A DNA stretch of 32,699 nucleotides, taken from positions 1 to 32,699 of the forward strand of contig CAVZMI010000030.1 in assembly GCA_963776275.1 (NCBI GenBank). Direction: 5' to 3'. The translations under genes and the position numbers were made by a program. The stretch comes from Ignavibacteriota bacterium. GTDB lineage: Bacteria > Bacteroidota > Ignavibacteria > UBA10030 > CAVZMI01. The notes under the pieces are model-generated. The model saw only the letters and a program-made list of their open reading frames with translations. It was not told the origin of the DNA and ran no database searches. Of the stretch, positions 1,629 to 16,027 are shown in pieces (positions within the stretch are counted from its first letter, which is position 1; each line of letters starts with the position of its first letter).

Positions 1629-1923
1629 GCCTAACCAGCAACTCAAGCTGACCGAATAAGCCCGCCTGCCTGCCGGAGGCACGCAGGCAGGCCTACGTTA
1701 AAAGGTAAACTTCCGCCTTCGTTTCACTTCCGCCTCCGTTCCACTACGGCGGACAGGCCGGCGGACGAGTCGGAGGGCGATCGCAGTCCGGTAGATGGTC
1801 TTTGAAACCATTCAAGAAGGTTGTGTTATGCCAATCCAGATAACATACTTGAATGAATCGACTAATAAGCAGCAAGCAATTGGGATGTTATGCGGGCAAA
1901 AGTAATAACTCCGCATGTTATGC
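1629..1923 (+). repeat. attC site 2 (left arm intact, right arm atypical)
   Basis: GCCTAACCAGCAACTCAAGCTGACCGAATAAGC left arm, then nested inserts. The family right arm is missing; three GTTATGC candidates lie at 1825, 1887 and 1917, so the end is uncertain. Confidence 0.65.
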
Positions 1924-1955
1924 GGATCAATCTAATTATTGTTTGGAGTATCAAA

Positions 1956-3500
1956 ATGAAAATACTAATGGTTCTATTAACGCTCCTATTGAACACACAA
2001 ATGTACGTTGATTCATTAGCTCAAGAAATGCCCTTCGTCTATGGAGTTGAAAACACGGGCGCGGACTGTCCGAAACCGCCTTTGCCTACATTCAACCAGC
2101 TCCCGACCATCAAAGTCCTACCCGACCCGTTCGAGTGGGCCGATAGCAGCGGTCGCATCTTGAACCTCTCCGATTGGCGGTGCCGGCGTGCCGAGATCGG
2201 CGCTGAGATCCAGCAATACGAGCTTGGGACCAAGCCAGCTCCTCCGGACAGCTTGGAAGCCAGCTTCTCTGCTGATAGCGTACTCACAGTGACCATAGTA
2301 GTGGGTGGAGACACACTCACGCTGACTTCGAAGATCACACTCCCAGATGGGTACGGCCCCTTCCCGGCCGTGATCGGTGTGGGATTTTTTCCGACGGGTA
2401 GTCTCCCACCCGACATCTTTACCAGTCGCCAGATCGCGACCATCCAATACACGGAATCGCAAATAACGAACGCTTGGTCAAACGTACGCGGCGATGGACC
2501 CTTCTTCAAACTTTATCCGGATAAAACAAGGAGCAAATTTGTCGCCTGGGCCTGGGGCATCAGCCGCATCATCGATGGGTTGGAGAAGTGCCCTGAAGCC
2601 AACATCGATCTCTCGCATCTGGCCGTGACCGGCTGCTCCTATGCCGGTAAAATTGCGCTCTTTTCCGGTGCGTTTGACGAGCGCATCGCGCTTACTATTG
2701 CGCAGGAGTCTGGTGGCGGGGGGTACACGGCCTGGCGCGTCACGGAGACCCTGAGCGGGAGCAGGGAAACTCTGAGGAACGCCCAAGGTCAAGCCTGGTA
2801 TTACTCGGGCCTCTCTCAATTCAACAACGCAGTTACAAAACTACCTTACGATCATCATGAGGTGATGGCAATGGTGGCGCCCCGCGCGTTGTTCGTGACC
2901 GGTAACCCCGATTATGAATGGCTGGCAGATGAATCCGGACACGTCGCGAGTAAGGCTGCATATGAGGTCTGGAAAGCTCTTGGGGTACCAGACAGGTTCG
3001 GCTTTTCTATTGTCAGTGGACATAGCCACTGCCTACTCCCGGATAGCCAGAGACCAGAGGTGATAGCCTTTGTGGAAAAGTTCCTCCTTGGGGACACGAA
3101 CGCGAATACAGACATATCGACCAGTCCATACAATACCGACCTTTCCCCCTGGATTACGTGGGATACACCTGAATTGGTTAATGATATGCCATCTTCTATA
3201 GGTAATTCTGAAAAAGTGATTGACCGATTCGCTCTTAAGCAAAATTACCCTAATCCTTTTAATCCAACTACAACGATACGATATTCGATAAGTTCACCAG
3301 AAGAGGTTTCAATTAAAATATATGATGTTTCTGGTCAGCTCGTTAAAGAAATTAGCAAAAATCAGAATCAAGCCGGGGAATACGAAGTTGTTTGGAATGG
3401 CAAAAATAATTTTGGCGAAAGAGTTACCTCCGGCATTTATTTTTACCAACTTGTGGTTGGTAATCATTCTGAAGCGAAGAAAATGATATTACTAAAATAA
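1956..3500 (+). CDS. Secreted CE15 (glucuronoyl esterase family) esterase with C-terminal FlgD-Ig/T9SS-like sorting domain, cassette 3
   Basis: Signal peptide, LPDPF, AWAWGISRIID, catalytic GCSYAGK, AFDERIALTIAQESGGGG, LPYDHHE and C-terminal QNYPNPFNPTTTI...SGIYFY. Start 1956 follows GGAG. Confidence 0.9.
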   Translation: MKILMVLLTLLLNTQMYVDSLAQEMPFVYGVENTGADCPKPPLPTFNQLPTIKVLPDPFEWADSSGRILNLSDWRCRRAEIGAEIQQYELGTKPAPPDSLEASFSADSVLTVTIVVGGDTLTLTSKITLPDGYGPFPAVIGVGFFPTGSLPPDIFTSRQIATIQYTESQITNAWSNVRGDGPFFKLYPDKTRSKFVAWAWGISRIIDGLEKCPEANIDLSHLAVTGCSYAGKIALFSGAFDERIALTIAQESGGGGYTAWRVTETLSGSRETLRNAQGQAWYYSGLSQFNNAVTKLPYDHHEVMAMVAPRALFVTGNPDYEWLADESGHVASKAAYEVWKALGVPDRFGFSIVSGHSHCLLPDSQRPEVIAFVEKFLLGDTNANTDISTSPYNTDLSPWITWDTPELVNDMPSSIGNSEKVIDRFALKQNYPNPFNPTTTIRYSISSPEEVSIKIYDVSGQLVKEISKNQNQAGEYEVVWNGKNNFGERVTSGIYFYQLVVGNHSEAKKMILLK

Positions 3501-3501
3501 C

Positions 3502-3910
3502 GCCTAACCAGCGGCTCAAGCTGACGCAAGGAGTCCGCGTACGTTAAGCATGGCTTGCATAGGTGAAGTGCAAATTTGTAAGCCAGAGGCTTATGAGCCT
3601 TTGGCTCAAAAATGAAGTGAATGAACCCGTCTCGCCGATGGCGAGACGAGGCTCGACTTCGTCGGCTTATTTCGTGTAGTACATTTTGAAAGTTATCACC
3701 TGCCTGTCGACTTGTCCGCTGAAACGAAGTGTAAGCGGAAGTGCCTTCGGCACGCAGACCCGCCTTAGTCCGGAGGACGTCAGCGGAGCAGTACTTTAGT
3801 ACGGCGGGCAGGCAGGGTGCGGCAGCGCGTTGTTTGCGTCCCGCGCTTTCGTGCTTTTTACGCCCCACGCTCTTTGAGGGGTTGCGAGGCTTAGCCGCCA
3901 TCCGTTAGGG
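3502..3910 (+). repeat. attC site 3 (409 bp)
   Basis: R'' GCCTAAC 3502 directly after the stop codon. GCGGCT(C)AAGC pairs with GCTTAGCCGC. R' GTTAGGG 3904-3910. The interior holds several GC-rich hairpin inserts. Confidence 0.88.
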
Positions 3911-3953: not shown

Positions 3954-4358
3954 ATGTCTCTTCGTCAGAAAATATTCTATGCAATATGTAGCATACTCGG
4001 AATGCTACTAATTATGATTGCACATGTTGTGCGTCCTTTCCTATATGGAAAATCAAATGCGGTTGTTTTTATTTTTGGATTATTGCCAAATTTGGCGGCG
4101 GCATTTTCTATACCTTTTCCAATTATGTTTTTCTGTATTCAATCACTCCGCTTTAAAATACGTACAAAAATGTTTTCCTGGCTGTTTATTCTAATTGTAA
4201 TCATAAGCATGGGTGGATTATTCATCTGGGAAGTAGTGCAAAAATTAATTTGGGATATGCCTTTTGATAACAATGATATCTGGGCAACAGGAATTGGTGG
4301 TGTATTATCCATTCTTGTTTACATCCTATTATTGAGTCCTAAAAAAAATACTGCCTAA
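3954..4358 (+). CDS. Small integral membrane protein (about 4 TM), cassette 4
   Basis: 134 aa with four hydrophobic stretches and an FDNNDI motif. The stop codon lies within R'' of attC4. Confidence 0.8.
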   Translation: MSLRQKIFYAICSILGMLLIMIAHVVRPFLYGKSNAVVFIFGLLPNLAAAFSIPFPIMFFCIQSLRFKIRTKMFSWLFILIVIISMGGLFIWEVVQKLIWDMPFDNNDIWATGIGGVLSILVYILLLSPKKNTA

Positions 4359-4612
4359 CCAGCAGTTCAAGCTGACGGTTGAGAGTTGGTTACGAAATTC
4401 ATGGCGAGTAGAGGTTCGGTGTTTAATAAAAAGCTTTTCAGAATGAACTTGGTTCGTTTAGTACTATTTTGAAAGTTTTCAACGCCGCAGCTCCCGTTTT
4501 GCGGGATCCTCGATTCGACCACAATTTGATTGGACAACATCAAATTTGTCGAATCGGGATTATTTATCCGCCGTAGTGTTGTTTACGTAGGCGGAGCGCC
4601 CATCCGTTGGGG
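4353..4612 (+). repeat. attC site 4 (260 bp), L' box interrupted by about 100 bp of hairpins
   Basis: GCCTAACCAGCAGTTCAAGCTGACGG ... GCCGCAGCT[insert]AGCGCCCATCCGTTGGGG. Confidence 0.85.
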
Positions 4613-6295: not shown

Positions 6296-6312
6296 ATAAA
6301 AATATAGCTGCG

Positions 6313-6701
6313 CCCTAACCAGGCGCTCCCCGTTAGAAAGCGGCGGGATTCTCAATTCGACCACAACTTACCTGTAAAACGGTAAGTTTGTCGAATTGGA
6401 ACAAGCTGACCCCGACAAAGAGCATGTCGGGGCAGGCGGAATGAGCATGCATATGTTAAAGAGCAAACTCCGGCGGACAAACGTAGTACGTTAAGCATGG
6501 CGAGCATAGGTTTAGAACAAATATGAAAGTTATCAGTGCCGCAGCTCCCGCTTTGCGGGATCCCTGCCTGCGTGCTGTAGGAACTACGGCAGGTAGGCTC
6601 GATTCGACCACAATTTGATTTGAAAACATCAAATTTGTCGAATCGGGATTATTTATCCGCCGTAGTGTTGTTTACGAAGGCGGAGCGCCCATCCGTTAGG
6701 C
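6313..6701 (+). repeat. attC site 5 (389 bp), both L'' and L' interrupted
   Basis: CCCTAACCAGGCGCTC[insert]AAGCTGAC[insert]GGAATGAGC ... GCCGCAGCT[insert]AGCGCCCATCCGTTAGGC. Confidence 0.85.
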
Positions 6702-6847
6702 CGCTTGCGCTTTTAAGATAGAAATTTGCTTCGATGGAAAATACGAGATATATTGACGCCAAAGGGAGAGAAAATAGATACCCCGATTTACATTTCGCAT
6801 TGAATTTATTAATAGTAGTGCATGTTTAACACATAAATTAAAAACAA

Positions 6848-8441
6848 ATGAAAACTAATTATTTGTTACTAATCATTCTTGGAAGCCTGTTTGTGGCATC
6901 CACATTTGCACAAAGCAATTCCAATAACAAATCCATATTACAGGAACGGGTTATCAGCCTTGATTTTAATAAAATCAAAGGGAACTTCACTACAATGTTT
7001 AAAGAATGCATTGGTGCCGGCCGCGCTAATGAAGGATTACGGGCGGATTGGCAACAACAACTGGCCTTTGTAAAGAAGGAATGCGATTTCAAATATATCC
7101 GCATGCACGGACTGTTAACAGACGATATGGGCGTTTACAGGGAAGATAAAAATGGAAATCCGGAATATAATTTTCAGTACATCGATGTTTTATATGATTA
7201 CCTTCTGAGTATCGGGATGAAACCTTTTGTTGAATTAGGATTCATGCCGGATGCACTGGCTAGTGGCAATCAAACCATTTTCTGGTGGAAGGGAAACGTC
7301 ACGCCACCTAAGGATTATAAAAAGTGGGAAGACTTAATCCGCAATCTTACCCTTCATTTCACTGAACGCTATGGTGCAGATGAAGTAAAGACCTGGTATT
7401 TTGAGGTTTGGAACGAGCCTAACCTGAGTGGTTTCTGGGCGGGAACGCAAGAGGAATATTTCAAATTGTATATGTATACCGTGAAAGCCATAAAAAGTGT
7501 AAACAAAGAATATCCGGGTTGGCGGACCTGCTACTGCCGGTGCCGCTTGGGTGCCTGAAATGATCGACTTCTGCAGTAAAAATGCGCTCCCTCTGGATTT
7601 TATCAGTACCCATTCTTATGGAGTCAAACAAGGATATCTCGATGAATTTGGAGTTTCAGGTACAGTCCTTGACAAAAATCCTATGAGCGTCAGCGGTGAT
7701 ATTCTGAATTCGCGTAAACAAATTGCAAGTTCCTCTATGCCAAATTTGGAACTACATTATACCGAATGGAGTTCATCCTACACACCCTTTGATCCAATTC
7801 ACGACAGCTATCATCAGGCTGCCTATGTGCTGGAAAAAATTAAACAAGTCGGAAATGCAGCGAATTCAATGTCATATTGGGTATTCACAGATATTTTTGA
7901 AGAAGCGGGACCGCGCTTTACACCTTTTCACGGCGGATTCGGATTGCTGAATTACCAGGCCATCAACAAACCAGCCTTCTATTCCTTCAAGTTCATGAAT
8001 ATACTCGGAAACATAGAGTTGATTAATACTGATACATGTTCTTGGGCATGCAAAAATGCAAAGGGCAACATTCAGTTACTTTTCTGGGATTTCACCAACA
8101 CACATCCCGGAGATTCTGTGAATAATCAAGTGTATTATATTCGCGATTTGCCAGCTAAATCAAAAGGGAAAGTAAAGATAAGTATATCAGGGATCCCGGA
8201 AGGTACCTATGCGCTTGAAATATATAAAGTAGGTTATCATATAAACGATCCATATTCTACTTATCTTGCGATGAACAAGCCAAAGCAACTTACTAAACAA
8301 CAGGTTGAGCAAATAAAGAAATTGAATGACGGTTCTCCTGTTTCTAATGAAATAGTAAAAGTGAAAACTGATGCAGCATTTTTAAAAGAACTGGATCTTC
8401 GTGAAAATGATGTTTTCTTATTGAATATGATTAAACAATAA
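6848..8441 (+). CDS. GH39 beta-xylosidase-like glycosidase, split by a +1 frameshift near 7514-7518, cassette 6
   Basis: Signal peptide, YIRMHG, KPFVELGFMP, WNEP (acid/base) in the first ORF and YTEW (nucleophile) in the second. Removing one base restores EYRVGGPATAGAAWVPEM and gives about 530 aa. Confidence 0.9.
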
Positions 8442-8574
8442 TGCAATTAAAAACCAACCACTATTTTTGAATAAGGCATAGATTTTTTTAAAATGAGTTT
8501 GAGATTAATAAACGGCACTTAACAACAGCTCATACGCCATGCGGGACGAGGATTTCAGGTAACTTTATCTAGCG

Positions 8575-8821
8575 GCCTAACCAGTCGCTCCCCGTTAGAA
8601 AGCAACGGGATTCTCAATTCGACCACAACTTACCTGTAAAACGGTAAGTTTGTCGAATTGGAACAAGCCCGCCTCGCCCCGCGATAATAGCCTTGTCATG
8701 CAAGGCGGGACGGGCTGACGGAATGAGCGCCCGCCTTCGTTGAAAAGCAAACTACGGCGGACAGGTCGGCGGGCAAGCGCCGGAGCGTTATTTACGAAGG
8801 CGGAGCCGCCATCCGTTAGAA
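8575..8821 (+). repeat. attC site 6 (247 bp), with inserts and most of the central family core lost
   Basis: GCCTAACCAGTCGCTC[same insert as attC5]AAGC... and GAGCCGCCATCCGTTAGAA end. Confidence 0.85.
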
Positions 8822-8916
8822 CGCAAAAATAACATTGCGTTGTTACACGGGTTTGCGGATATTTTCAAACCTTACACATAAATACAATATTAGCATCATC
8901 TTTTAAAGGCTTCAAA

Positions 8917-11331
8917 ATGGAAAACACAAAACTATTATCAGTTATTATTCTCATTTCAATTTGTACTTCATTATTATTGGGGCAAACATTTCAAAAAGAA
9001 TCGGATGGTATAGAGTTTAATGCATCGAATAACACAAATGGAATTAAAAAACTTAAGTTAAAGGTATTGAGCGACAACATTATTCAAGTAATTGTAACAC
9101 CTTCGAGTAAGTTTTCCATGCGCGGAAGCCTGATAATTACTGAAAAGTTGTTGACATCGCCAGTTTGGAAGGTTGAAGAGAACGGTAAAAACATAGTATT
9201 GTCAACTGCATCGGTTTCAGTTCGTATTGATAAACTTACTTCGAACCTTGAGTTTATTAAAAAAGATGGACAAATGATTCTGGCTGAAAGTGATAGGATA
9301 GTTAATAAGGCTAAGGTTGTTGGTGAAAATTGTTTCAATATCAAGCAATCATTTCAATATACGTTAGGCGAAACATTATATGGTTTAGGAAGTTTCCAGG
9401 ATGCCGATATTGCTTTAAATGGTAAAAAAATAACATTATTGCAAAAAAACCGCGACGATGTTGTACCGGTTATTATTTCTACCAATCATTACGGATTGAT
9501 TTGGGATAATTATTCCTATAGCGAGTTTAACGACACAAGGTGTAACTATTACCTGTGGTCAGAAGTAGCCGATGAAATCAATTACTTTTTCATTTATGGT
9601 GAGAATATCGATACAATAATTTCTGGATACCGCAAATTAACAGGTGTTGCGCCCATGTATCCCAAATGGGTCTATGGTTATATACAATCGAAGCAAAAAT
9701 ACAATACTCAGGATGAAATAGTTTCCATAGTAAAAGGGTTTCGCGAAAGGAAGTTCCCGCTTGATGTAATTGTTCAGGATTGGCAATACTGGCCTGATAA
9801 TCAGTGGGGACAAAAATCGTTTAACCGGAAGAATTATCCGAACCCCACTAAAATGGTAAATGATATTCACGATATGAATGCAAAGGTAATTATATCAATT
9901 TGGCCCAACATGACCAAAGGAACACCCAACCAGGTTGAGCTTGCCAAAATTAACGGGTTGCTGAAAGACAAGGAACATTTGAATATACTTATGCCCGAAG
10001 CAAGGCAAATGTATTGGAAGCAGGCTGACGATAGTCTTTTTTCTACTGGTATCGATGGCTGGTGGGCCGATTGCTCGGAAGGATATGACTCCGATTGGAC
10101 TTCTCCATTTTTTAAAATGTCCAATGTAAAATCGAATGAAGTAAATTCCGGTAATTTAAAATGGCTGATGAACAGTGGGCGTTATATCAATATTTATGCG
10201 CTGATGCACACCAAAGGCTTGTACGAAGGGCAACGATCAACACCCTCTCATAAAAGGGTTTACATTCTCACGCGTTCATCTTTTGCGGGAATGCAAAAAT
10301 ACGGGGCAAGTTATTGGACTGGCGATGTATCGGCCAATTGGGAGGAATATCGTATGCAAATACCCGCAGGTTTAAATTTTTGCATGACAGGGATTCCTTA
10401 TTGGACAACCGATATAGCCGGATATTTTATCAAACACGAACCGGGTTGGTGGTTTTCAAATGGTGTATTTGAAAAAGGTCAGGAAGACGAGGGATTTAAA
10501 GAACTTTATACGCGTTGGTTTCAGTTTGCAGCATTCTGTCCATTGTTCCGTGCGCACGGAGCTGATTTTTCCCGAGAACCCTGGGCTTTTGGAACTCCCG
10601 AATCGCGGACTTATCGTACATTGCTCAAATTTACCAACCTGCGTTACAGGTTAATGCCATACATCTATTCAATGGCATGGAAGATAACCAACGAGAATTA
10701 CACCCTCATGCGCGCTTTACCATTCGATTTCATGAATGATTCTGCAACCTATAATATCAATAACCAGTACATGTTTGGTCCTTCAATTATGGTAAATCCG
10801 GTAGTTAAACCAATGTACTACCATACCAACAATGTTAAAATAGATTCATCGGATTACAAAAGTGAAGTGTATTTGCCCAAAGGCGCACAATGGTTCGATT
10901 TCTGGACAGGCAAGCAATATGATGGTGGCCAAAATATTAAAGCAGATGCATCTTTCGAAACCATGCCCTTGTTCGTTCGGGCAGGTTCAATTATCCCATT
11001 CGGGCCTTTTATTCAATATTCAACAGAAAAAACCGATCCTCTCGAAATCAGGATTTATACAGGTTCCGATGGTGAATTTAGCCTGTATGAAGATGAAAAC
11101 GATAATTACAGTTATGAAAAAGGTGTTTATTCATTAATCTCATTCAAATGGGACAATGCCCAAAAAATATTAACAATTAGTGATAGAAAAGGTGATTTTC
11201 CCAGTATGCAAAAAAATAGGACATTTAATGTCGTAATTGTGAGTGATAGTAAAGGAAAGGGTGTTGAAACTACAGAAATACCTACAACAACTATTCAGTA
11301 CGTTGGTAAAAAGATGGTTGAAATATTTTAA
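8917..11331 (+). CDS. GH31 glycoside hydrolase (alpha-xylosidase-like), cassette 7
   Basis: Signal peptide, PLDVIVQDWQYW, GWWADCSE nucleophile region, WTGDV, PYWTTDIAG, RWFQFAAFCPLFRAHG and a C-terminal LYEDENDNYSYEKG domain. Confidence 0.93.
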   Translation: MENTKLLSVIILISICTSLLLGQTFQKESDGIEFNASNNTNGIKKLKLKVLSDNIIQVIVTPSSKFSMRGSLIITEKLLTSPVWKVEENGKNIVLSTASVSVRIDKLTSNLEFIKKDGQMILAESDRIVNKAKVVGENCFNIKQSFQYTLGETLYGLGSFQDADIALNGKKITLLQKNRDDVVPVIISTNHYGLIWDNYSYSEFNDTRCNYYLWSEVADEINYFFIYGENIDTIISGYRKLTGVAPMYPKWVYGYIQSKQKYNTQDEIVSIVKGFRERKFPLDVIVQDWQYWPDNQWGQKSFNRKNYPNPTKMVNDIHDMNAKVIISIWPNMTKGTPNQVELAKINGLLKDKEHLNILMPEARQMYWKQADDSLFSTGIDGWWADCSEGYDSDWTSPFFKMSNVKSNEVNSGNLKWLMNSGRYINIYALMHTKGLYEGQRSTPSHKRVYILTRSSFAGMQKYGASYWTGDVSANWEEYRMQIPAGLNFCMTGIPYWTTDIAGYFIKHEPGWWFSNGVFEKGQEDEGFKELYTRWFQFAAFCPLFRAHGADFSREPWAFGTPESRTYRTLLKFTNLRYRLMPYIYSMAWKITNENYTLMRALPFDFMNDSATYNINNQYMFGPSIMVNPVVKPMYYHTNNVKIDSSDYKSEVYLPKGAQWFDFWTGKQYDGGQNIKADASFETMPLFVRAGSIIPFGPFIQYSTEKTDPLEIRIYTGSDGEFSLYEDENDNYSYEKGVYSLISFKWDNAQKILTISDRKGDFPSMQKNRTFNVVIVSDSKGKGVETTEIPTTTIQYVGKKMVEIF

Positions 11332-11486
11332 GCTGATAAGTTATGAAGAATAGAATAAAATGTCCGCTAACATCGGCCCATACTGAATGCAGGGTTCGGC
11401 GGTTTGTAACAGCGGAAACATTTGCAACCGCGAAAACTCTCGCTGCTATAGCAGAGAACTGTTAAATAACATTTTCACCGTTTGCG

Positions 11487-11821
11487 TTCTAACCAGCGGC
11501 TCAAGCTGACCCGACTACGTCTTGAGAAACAGACTTCCGCCTCCATCCGCCGCCGGTGGATTCCGGCGGACAGGCTCGCCTCGCTCCGCTCGGCGGAGCG
11601 GGTCGTCGAGGCCAGGCCGAACGAGCGCCCGCCTTCGTGCTTTGCACTTCGGCGAGTAAATGGGTACATTTTTCATGGCTAATAGTGGGTTATCGTACAT
11701 TAATTAGGTTTATAGTATATTCAATTTAAGTGGTAATCAATTTAGTGTTGAGAATAAACTTGTTTCGCTTGGTGCAAGTTGCGAGTAATAGTTGCCGCAG
11801 CTTAACCGCCATCCGTTATGC
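11487..11821 (+). repeat. attC site 7 (335 bp)
   Basis: TTCTAACCAGCGGCTCAAGCTGAC[insert 11511-11617]CGAACGAGC ... GCCGCAGCTTAACCGCCATCCGTTATGC. The L boxes are intact. Confidence 0.88.
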
Positions 11822-11888
11822 AATAACTTTAGATTATAGATAATTAATGATTATTTTTTTTCGAACATCTAAATGAAGGGAGGATTTA

Positions 11889-13449
11889 ATGAATCAATCC
11901 ATTACTAAAGTCGAACGTACGAAGGTTCTTCCGGTCAACCGTTATCACAAATCAGATTCCGTTCCCTTTTCGGTTTTTGACATTAATAAGGCTCCTCTGA
12001 AGGATCTTGTATCAAAATTCAAAATAAGCACTGGCGCCGCAAAGGCGGTTATATCTGCAAGGAGAAGAAATAAAATCAACGTCTCAACTGAAATCTTGAA
12101 TCTCAAAGAATTGCGGCATCGTGATTTGGAGATTTTGCGGAGATGTGGTTATGGCAAAAATAACTTGAAATTTGCTATAGCCGATGTGCAGCCCGATAGC
12201 AATTATATTTATAGTTATAGACCTTTTGCGCTTAAAATTTCTGTCTTGAATCCATCCTTAAGAAGACTATTGTTGGTATCGGCGAAAGTTTTTTGGAAAG
12301 GAAAGCCCTTTATTGTAGAAAAAGAAATTTCTCAAGCCGAAATAGAGCAGGGCAGCATATTGCTGAACTTCAATGAGAAGCAGACATTACCCCCTAGACC
12401 GGCGGCATTTCATGTCGATATATTTGATAGTGAAGGTGGGCAGAGTTCATTTAAAGTAACTTGTGTCGTCTTACCTTCCAATCCATTGTCGCTCTACCTT
12501 GCGCCGGAGATATATAAGGTGACCGGTACGTACAGTCTTAGAGGATACTATGATTCAGGGACAAATAATTTTGTCACCGTGGTGAAAATTTCAATTTTTA
12601 ACGGGAATCCTTTCAGCGTTGCCATATCACGCTACATTAAATGGGAATATTGGGACGGTGGTGTCGGTGGTTCACTCATTGAATCCAATACCCACGATCT
12701 CGGTGGTAATTTTACCATCGGTGCAAATAATACGTGGAGCATTGATCTCTATTTTACTTCACCTCCCGGAAGCGGTATCTATAATACGTATCAAAATAAA
12801 GAAGATATGACGGTAAAAATTGAGATGAACAGTACTGACGGGACCATTATTAACGATACGATTACTGCAAGGGTGATGCTTGCCTTTGGTGTCGACATCA
12901 CTAGGGTCGCAAGCGATACATTCGTCGGACAAGAATATACCGATCTCTATGATGCCGTTGATGTAACAAAAACAATTTATGAAGCCCGAGATATCACTAT
13001 CAGAGATATTGGCAGGTATTATATTACGGACAGTGATGCAGGTAGTTACAAATATATTAATTCTGATTCTGAATGTCACAATTTGTTTAATGATTGGACG
13101 TGCTACGACCCAACTGGTTTCAATATCGATGTTTTTATCGCACACGATTTTGTTGGTGTGAGCTTCGATGGACTTGCTGGTAGCATCCCCTGGACCGATG
13201 AGTGACTCGGGAAGTAATAGCGGAGTCGTGGCTGATAAAACCGGGTACGTCGATGGTTCAGGAACAAAAAGGCTCTCGGTTGATTATCTAGGAATGCTAG
13301 TCGGACATGAAGTTGGACATTACCTTGGTCTCGTTCATATCTCGGAAGCCGGGAATCTGATGCTTGCGAGCAGCGGAACAAATGATACGAACTTAAATTA
13401 CGATCAATATAGAACCATTATGGGTTATGGTCGTGTATTTATCTTTTAA
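11889..13449 (+). CDS. Multidomain protein: N-terminal ComEA-like helix-hairpin-helix, beta-rich middle, C-terminal metzincin Zn-protease; +1 frameshift at CCCC 13187-13190; cassette 8 gene 1
   Basis: FDINKAPLKDL...ISTGAAKAVISARRR follows the HhH pattern. HEVGHYLGLVH (13306-13338) plus a GNLM Met-turn. Removing one C joins the two ORFs as AGSIPGPMS (about 519 aa). GAAGGGAGG RBS. Confidence 0.75.
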
Positions 13450-13467
13450 AAAAAGGAGAATAAGCAA

Positions 13468-14115
13468 ATGGCTATACCACTTACCCCGATAGCTGGCAAA
13501 GAAGTAAAATTCATTCTTAATGAACCGGCAAAAGAAATTAAAGGTGGACTTGAAAGAGAATCTACACTTATTTCAAGAGAAAAATACAAACAGATATTAG
13601 TAAGAGAACACCTTAACAAGATATTGCTTAATCATTGCAGTAATGAAGAAATTGCAAAAATGCTAAGGCCTGAACATGAACCCATACTTCACAAAATCTG
13701 CCTTGAAAGTGTTACAACAGGCTCACATCCTATGATAAGAAAAAAAGCTATTTTGGCACTTAGACATTATTTTACAAAAGAGAGTATAAACTTACTAACA
13801 GAACTTGCCATTAGTGGTGAAGATGAATATATAAGGAGCAATGCACTAGGCTCTCTCTCTGCTTTTAAAACGGCATTTTCAGTTCCTTTGCTGATAGAAG
13901 CACTAAAAGACACTTCGGATATGGTAAAGAATTCTGCGAGGGTGGGACTTAAAAATGTTATTTTGGATACCGAAGGTAAAAATGTACTGATAGCAGCGAT
14001 GAAGAAAACAAAAAATATTCAGCTTAAAAAAGAACTGAAAGAAATAATTGAAGGAAAGATACAAAAGAGCAAAAAGCCACTATCTAAACCACGACATGCA
14101 AAAAAAGACAAGTAA
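13468..14115 (+). CDS. HEAT-repeat protein, cassette 8 gene 2
   Basis: HEAT/PBS-like repeats (IRKKAILAL, EDEYIRSNALGSL, LIEALKDTSDMVKNSARVGL). AAGGAG RBS. No attC separates it from the upstream gene. Confidence 0.82.
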   Translation: MAIPLTPIAGKEVKFILNEPAKEIKGGLERESTLISREKYKQILVREHLNKILLNHCSNEEIAKMLRPEHEPILHKICLESVTTGSHPMIRKKAILALRHYFTKESINLLTELAISGEDEYIRSNALGSLSAFKTAFSVPLLIEALKDTSDMVKNSARVGLKNVILDTEGKNVLIAAMKKTKNIQLKKELKEIIEGKIQKSKKPLSKPRHAKKDK

Positions 14116-14119
14116 TGTA

Positions 14120-14190
14120 GCCTAACAAATGCTTCCACATAACGCTCCTTTCGCCAAGTTTGATCGAGCGGGTAAAGTACGCCGTTAGGT
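14120..14190 (+). repeat. attC site 8 (71 bp, short type)
   Basis: R'' GCCTAAC 14120-14126, inner CGCTC/GAGCG stem and R' GTTAGGT 14184-14190. Confidence 0.8.
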
Positions 14191-14236
14191 AGCCAATCTA
14201 TCACAGGCTTGTCAACAGAGCGAAGAATGCGAGGAA

Positions 14237-14746
14237 ATGATGATTCACCCATTGGTTACTCAGTTGCAGTTCACCCGTAGCGAGTTCGTGCGCTGTTTTG
14301 AAGGAGTGCCTCCCGAAGATGCGTGCCGTCGCCTGGAGTCGATGAATTGTCTGAGCTGGATCGTCGGTCATCTGGCATGGCAAGAGCACTTCTTCTGGGT
14401 ACAGATGGCTCAAGGTCAGAACATTGCCTCTGGCTTGCGTCAACTCGTAGGCTTTCGCCAACCAGCCAGTACACCACCTTGGGATGAGATGTGGACTTTG
14501 TGGCACGCTATCACCAAGGCAGCCGACGTGTACCTGTACGGGCTGAAACCGGAAGAGATGAACACCCACTTCGTATGGGAAGGCAACCCCATAGCGGAGA
14601 ACGTTGGCATTTTACTCTTGAAAAATATCTATCACTACTGGTTTCATCTTGGCAAAGCCCATGCGATACGTCAGATGCTGGGACATACCGATCTGCCAGT
14701 GTATGTTGGCAATATGCCCAACGTGAGATTTGCGCTCGAGGGATAA
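14237..14746 (+). CDS. DinB/YfiT-family protein, cassette 9
   Basis: MNCLSWIVGHLAWQE and HYWFHLG His motifs typical of the DinB four-helix fold. GAGG RBS. Confidence 0.88.
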   Translation: MMIHPLVTQLQFTRSEFVRCFEGVPPEDACRRLESMNCLSWIVGHLAWQEHFFWVQMAQGQNIASGLRQLVGFRQPASTPPWDEMWTLWHAITKAADVYLYGLKPEEMNTHFVWEGNPIAENVGILLLKNIYHYWFHLGKAHAIRQMLGHTDLPVYVGNMPNVRFALEG

Positions 14747-14761
14747 TGGAGGCGATTGGCT

Positions 14762-15310
14762 GCCTAATCAGCGCATCCCCGAAAAAAGAATTTGGGGCAG
14801 GCAAGACCCGATAGATCCTACTGGACCCCACAATCCCACATATCCCACAAACAACGTGGGACCGTAAAGAACACGAAACGTGGGACGTGAAGAACACGGG
14901 AGAAGGGGATGTAATTTGCATGTCGAGTGTCGATCATCAAAAGTCATGGAGTCCCGTAGGGACGGAATCTTGGTAGAAAACGCAAAACAAAATCCATTGA
15001 GCTCCGTCAGGGGCGGAATCTTGAAATATGTACCATGCATAAAAAGATTCCACCCCTACGGGGTTATGATATTTATGTGAAAGCGAATACTACCAAGATT
15101 TCACCTCTATGAGTCGTAGACCCCATCGGGGTTTGGTAATTTCGAAGGTGTACGATATGTGATCTCTACGAACCCTTCTTATAGAACATGGAACCATATC
15201 GGGGCAGGCCGAATGAGCCCGCCAAAAGATTCCGCCAGTCCCGTACAGAGCACGGGACGTAAAGAACACGAAAACGGCGGACGCACGAAACGCGAAAGCA
15301 TGGTGGGCAA
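14762..15310 (+). repeat. Degenerate terminal attC site 9 filled with nested repeats
   Basis: Mutated R'' GCCTAAT. GATTGGCTGCCTAAT complements GTTAGGTAGCCAATC at 14184 (13/15). Family motifs CGAATGAGCCCGCC and AAGCATGG are present; no right arm or R' was found. Confidence 0.65.
14951..15113. repeat. GTAG-type REP cluster (two forward, two inverted units; REPIN-like)
   Basis: GTCCCGTAGGGACGGAATCTTGGTAG (14951), GCTCCGTCAGGGGCGGAATCTT (15001), inverted AAGATTCCACCCCTACGGGGT (15044) and inverted CTACCAAGATTTCACCTCTATGAG (15090). Confidence 0.75.
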
Positions 15311-15388: not shown

Positions 15389-15426
15389 TAATAACGCTTG
15401 ACATTAATAACGGGAAGTGTTATTAT
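15389..15426 (+). promoter_or_regulatory. Sigma70 promoter of higBA with overlapping palindromic operator
   Basis: TTGACA 15398-15403, 17-bp spacer, TATTAT 15421-15426. Inverted repeat TAATAAC-N7-GTTATTA at 15405-15425 and a further TAATAAC at 15389. Confidence 0.8.
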
Positions 15427-15431
15427 ACCAT

Positions 15432-15713
15432 ATGATAAAGACCTTTAAGAATAAAGAAACAGAAAAAATATATGACCGTGAGTACTCGAAGAAGTTGCCA
15501 AGCGATATTCAGAGAATCGCAATGAGAAAACTATGGATGCTTGATGCAGCCCCTGATATTTATTCTCTTCGAGTTCCTCCTGGTAATAGGCTGGAATCGT
15601 TACACGGAGCTCGCGAGGGGCAATATAGTATCAGAATAAACGATCAATGGAGAATATGTTTTCGATGGCATGATGGCAATGCCTATGACGTTGAGATAAT
15701 CGATTATCATTAA
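15432..15713 (+). CDS. higB: HigB toxin (RelE/ParE family)
   Basis: MIKTFKNKETE..., LRVPPGNRLESLHG.REGQYSIRINDQWRICFRW...VEIIDYH. The toxin precedes the antitoxin. Confidence 0.95.
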   Translation: MIKTFKNKETEKIYDREYSKKLPSDIQRIAMRKLWMLDAAPDIYSLRVPPGNRLESLHGAREGQYSIRINDQWRICFRWHDGNAYDVEIIDYH

Positions 15714-15724
15714 GGAGAGAAAAA

Positions 15725-16027
15725 ATGTCCACAAAAAAAATACAGCCGATCCATCCAGGAGAAATTCTTAAGGAAGAGTTCTTGGATCCGATGGGAATTT
15801 CTCAATATCGCCTTGCGAAAGATATCAATGTACCAGCAAGAAGGATCAACGAAATCGTCCATGGAAAACGCTCGATCTCCGCTGATACCGCATTGAGATT
15901 ATCGCGGTATTTCAAGGTGTCTCCCATCTTCTGGATTAATTTACAGGCGCATTATGATATCGAGATTGCGCGAGACAAATTATCATCAAGACTCGACAGG
16001 GAGATTAAGGTATATGCTGCCGCGTAA
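15725..16027 (+). CDS. higA: HigA antitoxin (HTH-XRE)
   Basis: PIHPGEILKEEFL, RINEIVHGKRSISADTALRL and FWINLQ motifs. Confidence 0.95.
   Translation: MSTKKIQPIHPGEILKEEFLDPMGISQYRLAKDINVPARRINEIVHGKRSISADTALRLSRYFKVSPIFWINLQAHYDIEIARDKLSSRLDREIKVYAAA

Follow-up and report, generated by a model that had tools for sequence, protein, structure and literature searches.

Metzincins are mostly extracellular enzymes that are controlled by their own propeptides. The adamalysin/reprolysin enzymes (M12B) are secreted and possess a signal peptide and a prodomain, adamalysins having an aspartate after the third histidine of the zinc motif. The archaemetzincins (M54) lack a signal peptide and are of unknown function. 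The 32,699-nucleotide stretch studied here (contig CAVZMI010000030.1 of an Ignavibacteriota bacterium, assembly GCA_963776275.1; called the window throughout) carries at 11889–14115 a gene for a 519 amino acid protease with a metzincin catalytic domain, followed by a gene for a 215 amino acid HEAT-repeat protein. Judged by sequence comparison, these genes form a real, conserved two-gene and sometimes one-gene module. The explanation favoured here, at a probability of roughly 45%, is a mobile cytoplasmic two-subunit protease with a role in conflict, the HEAT subunit of which would act as a prodomain or regulator supplied in trans. The features of the gene pair are:

11889..12164, + strand: N-terminal segment and four-helix helix-hairpin-helix (HhH)-like domain, residues 1–92, strongly basic (from the structure model, HHH_3 and hhalign)
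12165..12875, + strand: two beta-sandwiches, residues ~93–198 and ~198–330 (from VIA-align and Foldseek)
12876..13449, + strand: metzincin catalytic domain, residues ~326–519, annotated from residue 330 (from motif and fold)
13191, + strand: extra T giving a +1 frame shift; CCCC-T-GGACC in the window, CCCCGGACC in the related metagenome locus L060
13468..14115, + strand: gene for the 215 amino acid HEAT partner, 18 nt past the protease stop, with GGAG upstream

The protease and the described metzincins

The catalytic domain contains the sequence HEVGHYLGLVH (HExxHxxGxxH) at 13306–13338 and a Met-turn, NLM, 6–8 residues past H483, with its Met codon at 13360–13362. Residues H473, E474, H477, G480 and H483 are invariant in 46/46 relatives and, because the zinc site is so strictly kept, the family appears to be under selection as an active enzyme. 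Met491 is present in 41/46 and is replaced by Leu in 5, the Met-turn aligns by sequence with those of MMP-1 and fragilysin, and both tyrosines of a YDQY motif are invariant.

The structure was modelled with AlphaFold2 (AF2) using the protein of L060 (98% identical) and a 46-sequence alignment (pLDDT 92.2, pTM 0.80). In VIA-align, residues 326–519 of the model match 13 entries of the adamalysin, ADAM and ADAMTS groups at Z 14.8–18.4, well above unrelated entries, the best being atrolysin C (1dth; Z 18.4, rmsd 2.9 over 181 residues), ADAM-8 (4dd8; Z 18.0) and ADAMTS-5 (Z 16.8), followed by fragilysin (14.1), ulilysin (13.2), archaemetzincin (13.1) and MMP-9 (9.1). In the ESM Atlas only generic reprolysin-like clusters were recovered, every score being below 0.9. 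The likeness to M12B thus extends to fold, zinc motif, Met-turn and weak Reprolysin_2/3/4/5 Pfam matches in family members; identity to adamalysin-type structures, however, is only 11–16%, the residue after the third histidine is V, L, I or T, and the family possesses no signal peptide, a different N-terminal architecture and a dedicated HEAT partner. Sequence models reach only the zinc motif, Peptidase_M10 and Reprolysin matches lying mostly under their gathering scores and sequence matches to the PDB having E-values of 0.002 or weaker. The L060 protein falls short with both Reprolysin_3 (21.2 vs 22.4) and Reprolysin_4 (19.1 vs 22); the C-terminal piece of the window, scored alone, reaches 22.6 vs 22 with Reprolysin_4, and a few relatives pass, e.g. 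P0004 (Reprolysin_3, 27.0). NCBI names P0004 a matrixin (M10A), for which Peptidase_M10 gives 20.9–23.5 bits, below the cut-off of 24, over the zinc-motif region only. The same model matches 40/46 members at E<=0.01, mostly beneath its cut-off, and the likeness to the MMP fold amounts to only Z 9.

With the archaemetzincins the family shares the metzincin fold (Z 13.1 to 2x7m, 11.9 to 3zvs) and the absence of an export signal. Those proteins, however, consist of a single domain of ~170–190 amino acids, with no HhH, sandwiches or HEAT partner, and the NCBIfam archmetzin model gives 13–17 bits here against a cut-off of 145. A further comparison is with the zymogens of fragilysin and the matrixins, which an N-terminal prodomain holds latent and to which the region from zinc motif to Met-turn can be aligned (fold Z 13–14 for fragilysin, 9xvw and 7pnd; Z 9 for proMMP-9). 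In a clade of fused proteins described below the HEAT partner sits N-terminally, at the position of a prodomain. The zymogens differ in being secreted, whereas the putative prodomain of the present family is a HEAT solenoid with a gene of its own, located downstream. A cysteine-switch motif was not seen in this family.

The N-terminal domain consists in the model of four helices (residues 37–42, 48–60, 66–71 and 77–86) and has a net charge of +11 in L060 (family median +8.5), compared with −15 (median −12) for the catalytic domain. Pfam HHH_3 matches 11/46 family members at E<=0.01 (best 7.8e-10), P0083 being above the cut-off (33 vs 27), and the family profile aligns to the ComEA-type HHH_3 domain in hhalign with a probability of 76% (E 2.2e-5). 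The central region resembles FnIII/CBM domains at residues 93–198 and ApaG/Spo0M at 198–330, each at Z 9–10 in VIA-align, while Foldseek returned RbmA and transglutaminase barrels. The motifs that are most specific to the family (VLPSNPLSL, WxFWDGGVGG, SPxGSGI and KEDMT) are located in these sandwiches. A signal-like hydrophobic N-terminus was found in 0/46 proteases and 0/34 partners by a crude Kyte-Doolittle test, and from this missing export signal we infer that the protease is cytoplasmic.

In the window the 519 amino acid protease is encoded at 11889–13449 on the + strand and is split by a frameshift into open reading frames (ORFs) 11889–13205 (438 amino acids) and 13168–13449 (93 amino acids, frame +1). 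The 438 amino acid piece matches 130 proteins at E<=0.001, mostly 513–520 amino acids long, the best outside match having 519 residues and 75% identity. In the alignment the first piece stops at FDGLAGSIP and the second resumes at PGPMSDSG, intact homologs reading FDGLAGGIPGPMNDSG across the break (FDGLAG.IPGP). Locus L060, which is 98% identical in DNA, contains an intact 519 amino acid ORF (L060:4602–6161), and one base fewer at 13191 is also found in a contig of public run X1. The two public DNA runs with related contigs are peat metagenomes, available as contigs only, and neither is the exact strain of the window; no RNA run is listed as holding the window sequence.

The window and L060 otherwise differ by 52 mismatches and 2 gaps over 2792 aligned bases, both ORFs being open downstream of the break. 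The second split gene of the window, GH39 (6848–7558 + 7551–8441), contains one extra T at ~7511, where L060 is again intact, and L060 reads CCGG at both break points. That two indels of one kind fall on a shared 4-nt motif points to a systematic error of reading or assembly, to which a methylated site may have given rise. On this sequence evidence the organism itself probably has an unbroken protease gene, the frame break being a likely assembly error. Upstream of the protease start lies a Shine-Dalgarno-like GGGAGG; a promoter and terminator scan of 11300–14300 gave nothing scoring above shuffles, and no Rfam family was found in the window.

The first-pass annotation of this region, made from the letters and their ORFs, had proposed that repair of one frameshift would yield a protein of about 519 amino acids, with no signal peptide, a beta-rich middle and a C-terminal HExxHxxGxxH motif with Met-turn. 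The length agrees with the intact ORF of L060, the beta-rich middle corresponds to the two sandwiches of the model, and both the motif and the Met-turn recur through the family. The secreted homologs that would have made it an ordinary exported protease did not appear among the 46. Each of the three findings by which the proposal could have been overturned was looked for, and none of them refuted it.

The HEAT partner, gene pairing and fused forms

The product of the downstream gene contains a Pfam HEAT_2 domain (39.5 bits vs a cut-off of 27.7, E 6.8e-10), in keeping with its earlier description as a 215 amino acid HEAT protein 18 nt downstream of the protease. Its AF2 model, from 34 sequences, has a pLDDT of 83, with residues 1–36 and 196–215 of low confidence; the core (residues 41–195) is predicted to form ten helices in five HEAT-like repeats. 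Foldseek matched it to alphaRep (E 1.8e-4; TM 0.5–0.7 depending on target) and designed HEAT/ARM proteins. Residues 1–40 comprise an N-peptide (F..NEP..I.GG..R.S) which is modelled as disordered yet is among the best-conserved parts of the protein: across the 34 partners F15, N18, E19, P20, G26 and G27 occur in 62–82% and S32 in 94%, while R30 and R46 are invariant. Residues 196–215 form a basic tail, and the charge of the tail is positive in 26/34; no DNA-binding Pfam domain was matched by the partner. The core therefore resembles PBS-lyase-type HEAT proteins and alphaRep in its matches to HEAT_2 and alphaRep structures, whereas what sets the present family apart is its conserved N-peptide, its basic tail and a strict association with a metzincin, and scores to the NblB and CpcE NCBIfam models lie far below cut-off. 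The partners at L001:6540–7121 and L003:6519–7073 (both Actinomycetota) and L079:6156–6716 lack part of the HEAT region, and Cys-rich tails (HDCCCD, HDGCCCDD and CCCIKLPR) replace the basic one.

Protease loci were collected from genomes (at least 5, among the matches listed) and from metagenomes (54), giving 59, several of which are near-duplicates. In 52 of these the sequence extends for >=300 nt past the protease stop, the remaining 7 ending too early. In 51/52 the first ORF after the protease on its strand matches a profile hidden Markov model of the partner, at gaps of −83 to +88 nt, mostly 4–27, so that the two genes do co-occur, a point on which the first-pass proposal of a two-gene unit depended. 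In the 52nd locus, L109 (960–2156), an in-frame deletion fuses the protease at residue ~294 to the partner at residue ~76, and this locus is a decayed copy of the protease-partner module. Among 26 complete pairs at <95% protease identity, the protease and partner distances are correlated (Mantel r 0.84, a value reached in 0/2000 permutations), the partner diverging more, with a mean identity of 29% vs 49% for the protease. A conserved third gene was sought, and nothing was common beyond near-identical loci. In the Acidobacteriota metagenome-assembled genome (MAG), a ComEA-like HhH gene (L002:7168–7674; HHH_3 1.7e-22) lies directly 3' of the partner.

When the sandwich region was used in an exhaustive profile search, proteins of 778–804 amino acids were recovered which possess HEAT_2 near residues 120–200 and a metzincin C-terminus. 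In one of these, P0190, residues 11–204 align to the partner profile (prob 98.1, E 7e-14), with the F..NE motif and the basic stretch after the HEAT region included, and residues 368–791 align to protease residues 94–519 (prob 99.9). A search with P0190 gave 32 proteins, 28 of which are 652–863 amino acids long and contain HEAT_2; since these come from four sources, on contigs of up to 928 kb, the fusion is a real and recurrent clade. In the fused variant P0219 the domain order is HHH_3 - HEAT_2 - metzincin, which indicates that the HhH module travels with the system despite the changed order. Because the fused forms place the partner N-terminally, in the manner of a prodomain, a bound regulator or inhibitor is favoured over a mere substrate. 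Of the three roles first offered for the HEAT protein, namely substrate, inhibitor or sensor, it is the simple substrate that these forms disfavour.

The cassette array and the distribution of the family

Some integron gene cassettes are reported to encode defence against phages (bioRxiv 10.1101/2024.07.02.601719). The protease pair lies within an array of co-oriented genes that takes up the first 16 kb of the window, with all of its attC-type sites on the + strand. Gene order and sites are:

Array, in order: DJ-1/PfpI, 99 amino acid ORF, glucuronyl esterase with type IX secretion system (T9SS) tail, 134 amino acid ORF, beta-lactamase-family hydrolase, GH39, GH31, protease pair, DinB-family protein, HigB/HigA
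Core genes after the array: lipoyl synthase (lipA), rplM, rpsI, rpsB, tsf, pyrH, frr
1623–1800, 3502–3910, 4347–4612, 6310–6700, 8569–8822, 11484–11821 and 14756–~15400, + strand: attC-type sites
11484..11821, + strand: long attC of the preceding GH31 cassette; R'' region GCGTTCTAAC at 11484, L'-R' end ...GCTTAACCGCCATCCG/TTATGC (slash, crossover)
14117..14190, + strand: possible short attC, GCCTAAC ... GTTAGGT, with the R''/R' boxes of the array, 4 nt past the partner stop

The repeats between cassettes, 250–400 nt in length, are conserved at the left end (GCCTAACCAGCGGCTCAAGCTGAC) and at the right end (GC..AGCCGCCATCCGTTAGGC) and are confined to the array part of the contig. Their ends are imperfect reverse complements, as in R''-L''/L'-R' of attC, and GC-rich internal blocks are common to the sites, which exceed the usual lengths of attC. 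The R'' region, compared as reverse complement with the first 10 nt of its own cassette, agrees at 10/10 positions for the cassettes at 6695 (GH39) and 8815 (GH31) and at 9/10 for those at 428 and 4606; as a sequence signature this complementarity is the classic footprint of circularising cassettes. Since the ends of the 343-nt attC were left unpaired in the whole-element fold, the attC call rests on such sequence signatures and on strain comparison.

The strain comparison was made with L060, which carries window positions 11809–14886 and 6682–8506 in reversed order. Its identity to the window starts exactly at CCATCCG/TTATGC and the attC upstream differs, from which it follows that the protease cassette starts at 11815/11816. 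The crossover (G/TT) of the attC of the GH31 cassette is at 11815–11817, and the ends of this site are common to five other sites of the array. At the level of aligned sequence the left cassette boundary is thus a proven recombination point. The right side is less clear: the site at 14117–14190 has a fold z of 0.0 vs shuffles and is complementary to the cassette start at 7/10 positions, and L060 similarity continues through it into the DinB gene, to 14886. The DinB gene is not linked to the protease pair at other loci. The attC-bounded unit of the first-pass annotation therefore stands on its left boundary, which is solid, and is weak on its right.

The array resembles an integron in its co-oriented genes, its attC-type sites and an order that is not the same in two near-identical strains, the breakpoints lying at the R' box; it differs in that the protease cassette measures ~2.4 kb with two genes, which is large for an integron cassette, and in the 250–400 nt of the neighbouring attC sites. 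No integron integrase above the NCBIfam cut-off was found on the contig or in the genome, the best match to TIGR02249 being 137.6 vs 265 bits (contig C22), and the array may extend onto another contig or be an attC cluster that has no integrase. The best TIGR02249 matches, both below cut-off and with model positions ~181–234 unmatched, are tyrosine-recombinase genes at C22:9542–10312 and C23:235729–236553. Further CCATCCGTTAG R' boxes occur on genome contigs C4 (328, 1345) and C23 (133–151 kb, 334–338 kb).

Other cassettes of the array contain carbohydrate-active enzyme genes and are up to 3 kb long: the glucuronyl esterase with its T9SS sorting tail (1890–3500), GH39 (6848–8441) and GH31 (8917–11331). 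The HigB/HigA-type toxin-antitoxin pair at 15417–16027 is the final unit, directly before the core genes. ORFs inside attC-type sites are probably spurious, for instance the minus-strand one at 3464–3901. Within the GH31 cassette, just past the GH31 stop and ahead of the long attC, lies a 16-nt inverted repeat (11357–11475), its arms separated by 87 nt, which may represent a terminator or the remains of an attC.

The family is rare, with 80 representative clusters at E<=0.001 and 51 at <=1e-10 among 1.84 billion proteins. Its taxonomic range was drawn from the genome loci among the matches listed, which are in Pseudarthrobacter, Agromyces, Acidobacteriota, a Proteobacteria MAG and Acidimicrobiia, and from the source names of relatives, which include Bacteroidota, Saprospiraceae, Larkinella, Kitasatospora, Actinomadura, Nocardia, Gaiellaceae and a MAG labelled Thorarchaeota. 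It is present in 0/400 other sampled genomes of the phylum of the window, and in a single copy in its own genome (3.70 Mb, 38 contigs, the window being the whole of contig C30).

Neighbouring genes were scanned as 131 ORFs from 46 loci, seven near-duplicate loci having been dropped, and proved to be heterogeneous. Transposases flank the module in L065, L067 and L075; a TIR-PASTA protein is found in L005 and an nSTAND1 NTPase in L086. Genes of toxin-delivery type are a type VI secretion Tle1-like lipase (L090), two eCIS_core proteins (L092), TcdB_toxin_midC (L061) and RTX (L079). Such neighbours lend the loci a flavour of variable or conflict regions, without statistical weight.

NCBI labels the relatives 'matrixin family metalloprotease', 'HEAT repeat domain-containing protein' or hypothetical, and neither protein matches an NCBIfam model. 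PADLOC gave chance-level matches only (ThsB, E 0.001–0.006 over 40 residues; HEAT-ARM_XIII, E 2e-4). A full-text literature search, integron cassette and anti-phage contexts included, found nothing on a metzincin-HEAT pair, and in preprint 10.64898/2026.03.17.712381 a word search gave no mention of protease or peptidase. The architecture, which the first-pass annotation had not recognised either, thus matched no model in PADLOC or NCBIfam.

Possible roles of the module

In the favoured explanation the HEAT subunit would bind the protease and serve it, in trans, as a prodomain. The N-peptide of this subunit might occupy the active-site cleft while the HEAT solenoid docks on the sandwich or catalytic domains, and the bound partner would keep the enzyme latent, or select its target, until a signal removes or cleaves it. 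Nucleic acid, which would bind through the HhH domain and the tail, is considered as a trigger or tether because both of these are basic; a foreign protein recognised at the HEAT surface would be an equal candidate for the signal. The freed protease would then cut cytoplasmic proteins. A conflict role, of an abortive-infection or toxin/antitoxin-like kind, is preferred to housekeeping because the module is rare, patchy, mobile and carried in a cassette. At 519 + 215 amino acids it is of atypical size for a type II toxin-antitoxin pair.

Several observations weigh against this explanation. Many of the neighbours are ordinary metabolic genes and clear restriction-modification neighbours occur in only 2/46 loci (L070, L097); there were 0 relatives on the viral contigs searched, and no PADLOC-DB 2.0 system model fits either protein. 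The Mantel correlation would also be expected under simple co-inheritance. Neither the window ORF nor L060 has a Pfam HHH_3 match at E<=0.01, which indicates that the HhH is degenerate in the clade of the window; the ComEA-like N-terminus of the first-pass annotation accordingly holds for the family and not for the sequence in which it was proposed. Its suggestions that the protease responds to nucleic acid and that the module acts against phages drew no support from the data, the latter in view of the restriction-modification, viral-contig and PADLOC results. The more specific version, in which a foreign nucleic acid or phage protein displaces the HEAT subunit and the metzincin destroys host or phage proteins in abortive infection, is considered rather unlikely. 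Defence is offered as a hypothesis, and the architecture is a new variant of known parts.

The extra T at 13191, were it a real inactivating mutation, would also count against a working module, at least in this genome, where it would truncate the protease before its zinc site and leave the HEAT gene an orphan. The assembly does read two frames, the GH39 cassette gene is split too, and nothing keeps a silent cassette of an integron array from decaying; but each break consists of one additional T at a CCGG of the 98%-identical L060, which looks like systematic error, and otherwise the two loci differ little over 2792 bases, with both ORFs fully open past the break. A dead remnant appears somewhat unlikely. 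An interbacterial toxin with its immunity protein, i.e. a metzincin delivered into rivals by a secretion or injection machine and a downstream HEAT protein shielding the producer, would account for the gene order and for the faster evolution of the partner, and some loci adjoin the toxin-delivery genes listed above. These are only 4/46 of the scanned loci, however, the 46 members have neither a signal peptide nor a Pfam trafficking domain, and covalent fusion in 28/32 members of the sister clade is hard to square with the delivery of an active toxin. On balance we regard this arrangement as improbable.

Slightly more improbable still is an accessory DNA-associated protease, one which for example removes proteins stuck or cross-linked to DNA, is tethered by the HhH domain and basic tail, and uses the HEAT protein as an adaptor; DNA-dependent metalloproteases would be its functional analogue. 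The basic HhH-like N-domain (median +8.5), the basic partner tail (26/34) and the lack of an export signal by the hydropathy test are all compatible with it, as are the recurrence of HhH in the fused P0219 and the ComEA-like HhH gene after the pair in L002. It is harder to reconcile with a family that is very rare and patchy (0/400 genomes of the same phylum; 80 clusters) and travels as a cassette, with the degenerate hairpin in the clade of the window, or with at least two of the fused proteins, P0190 and P0192, which lack a Pfam HhH match or an alignment to the HhH region.

The present family adds to the metzincins a group with no export signal, a DNA-binding-type domain and a tie to a HEAT protein that evolution has also fused to the protease. 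If it is true that the HEAT subunit is a prodomain in trans, this would be a new mode of control for metzincins; if the defence version were true, the module would be the first metzincin-based immune effector, and its partner the first HEAT protein known as a protease prodomain. Because it is small (2.3 kb, two genes), the module is easy to test. Being rare, mobile and housed in an integron array, it may reasonably be considered as a candidate conflict system that is missing from today's catalogues of defence.

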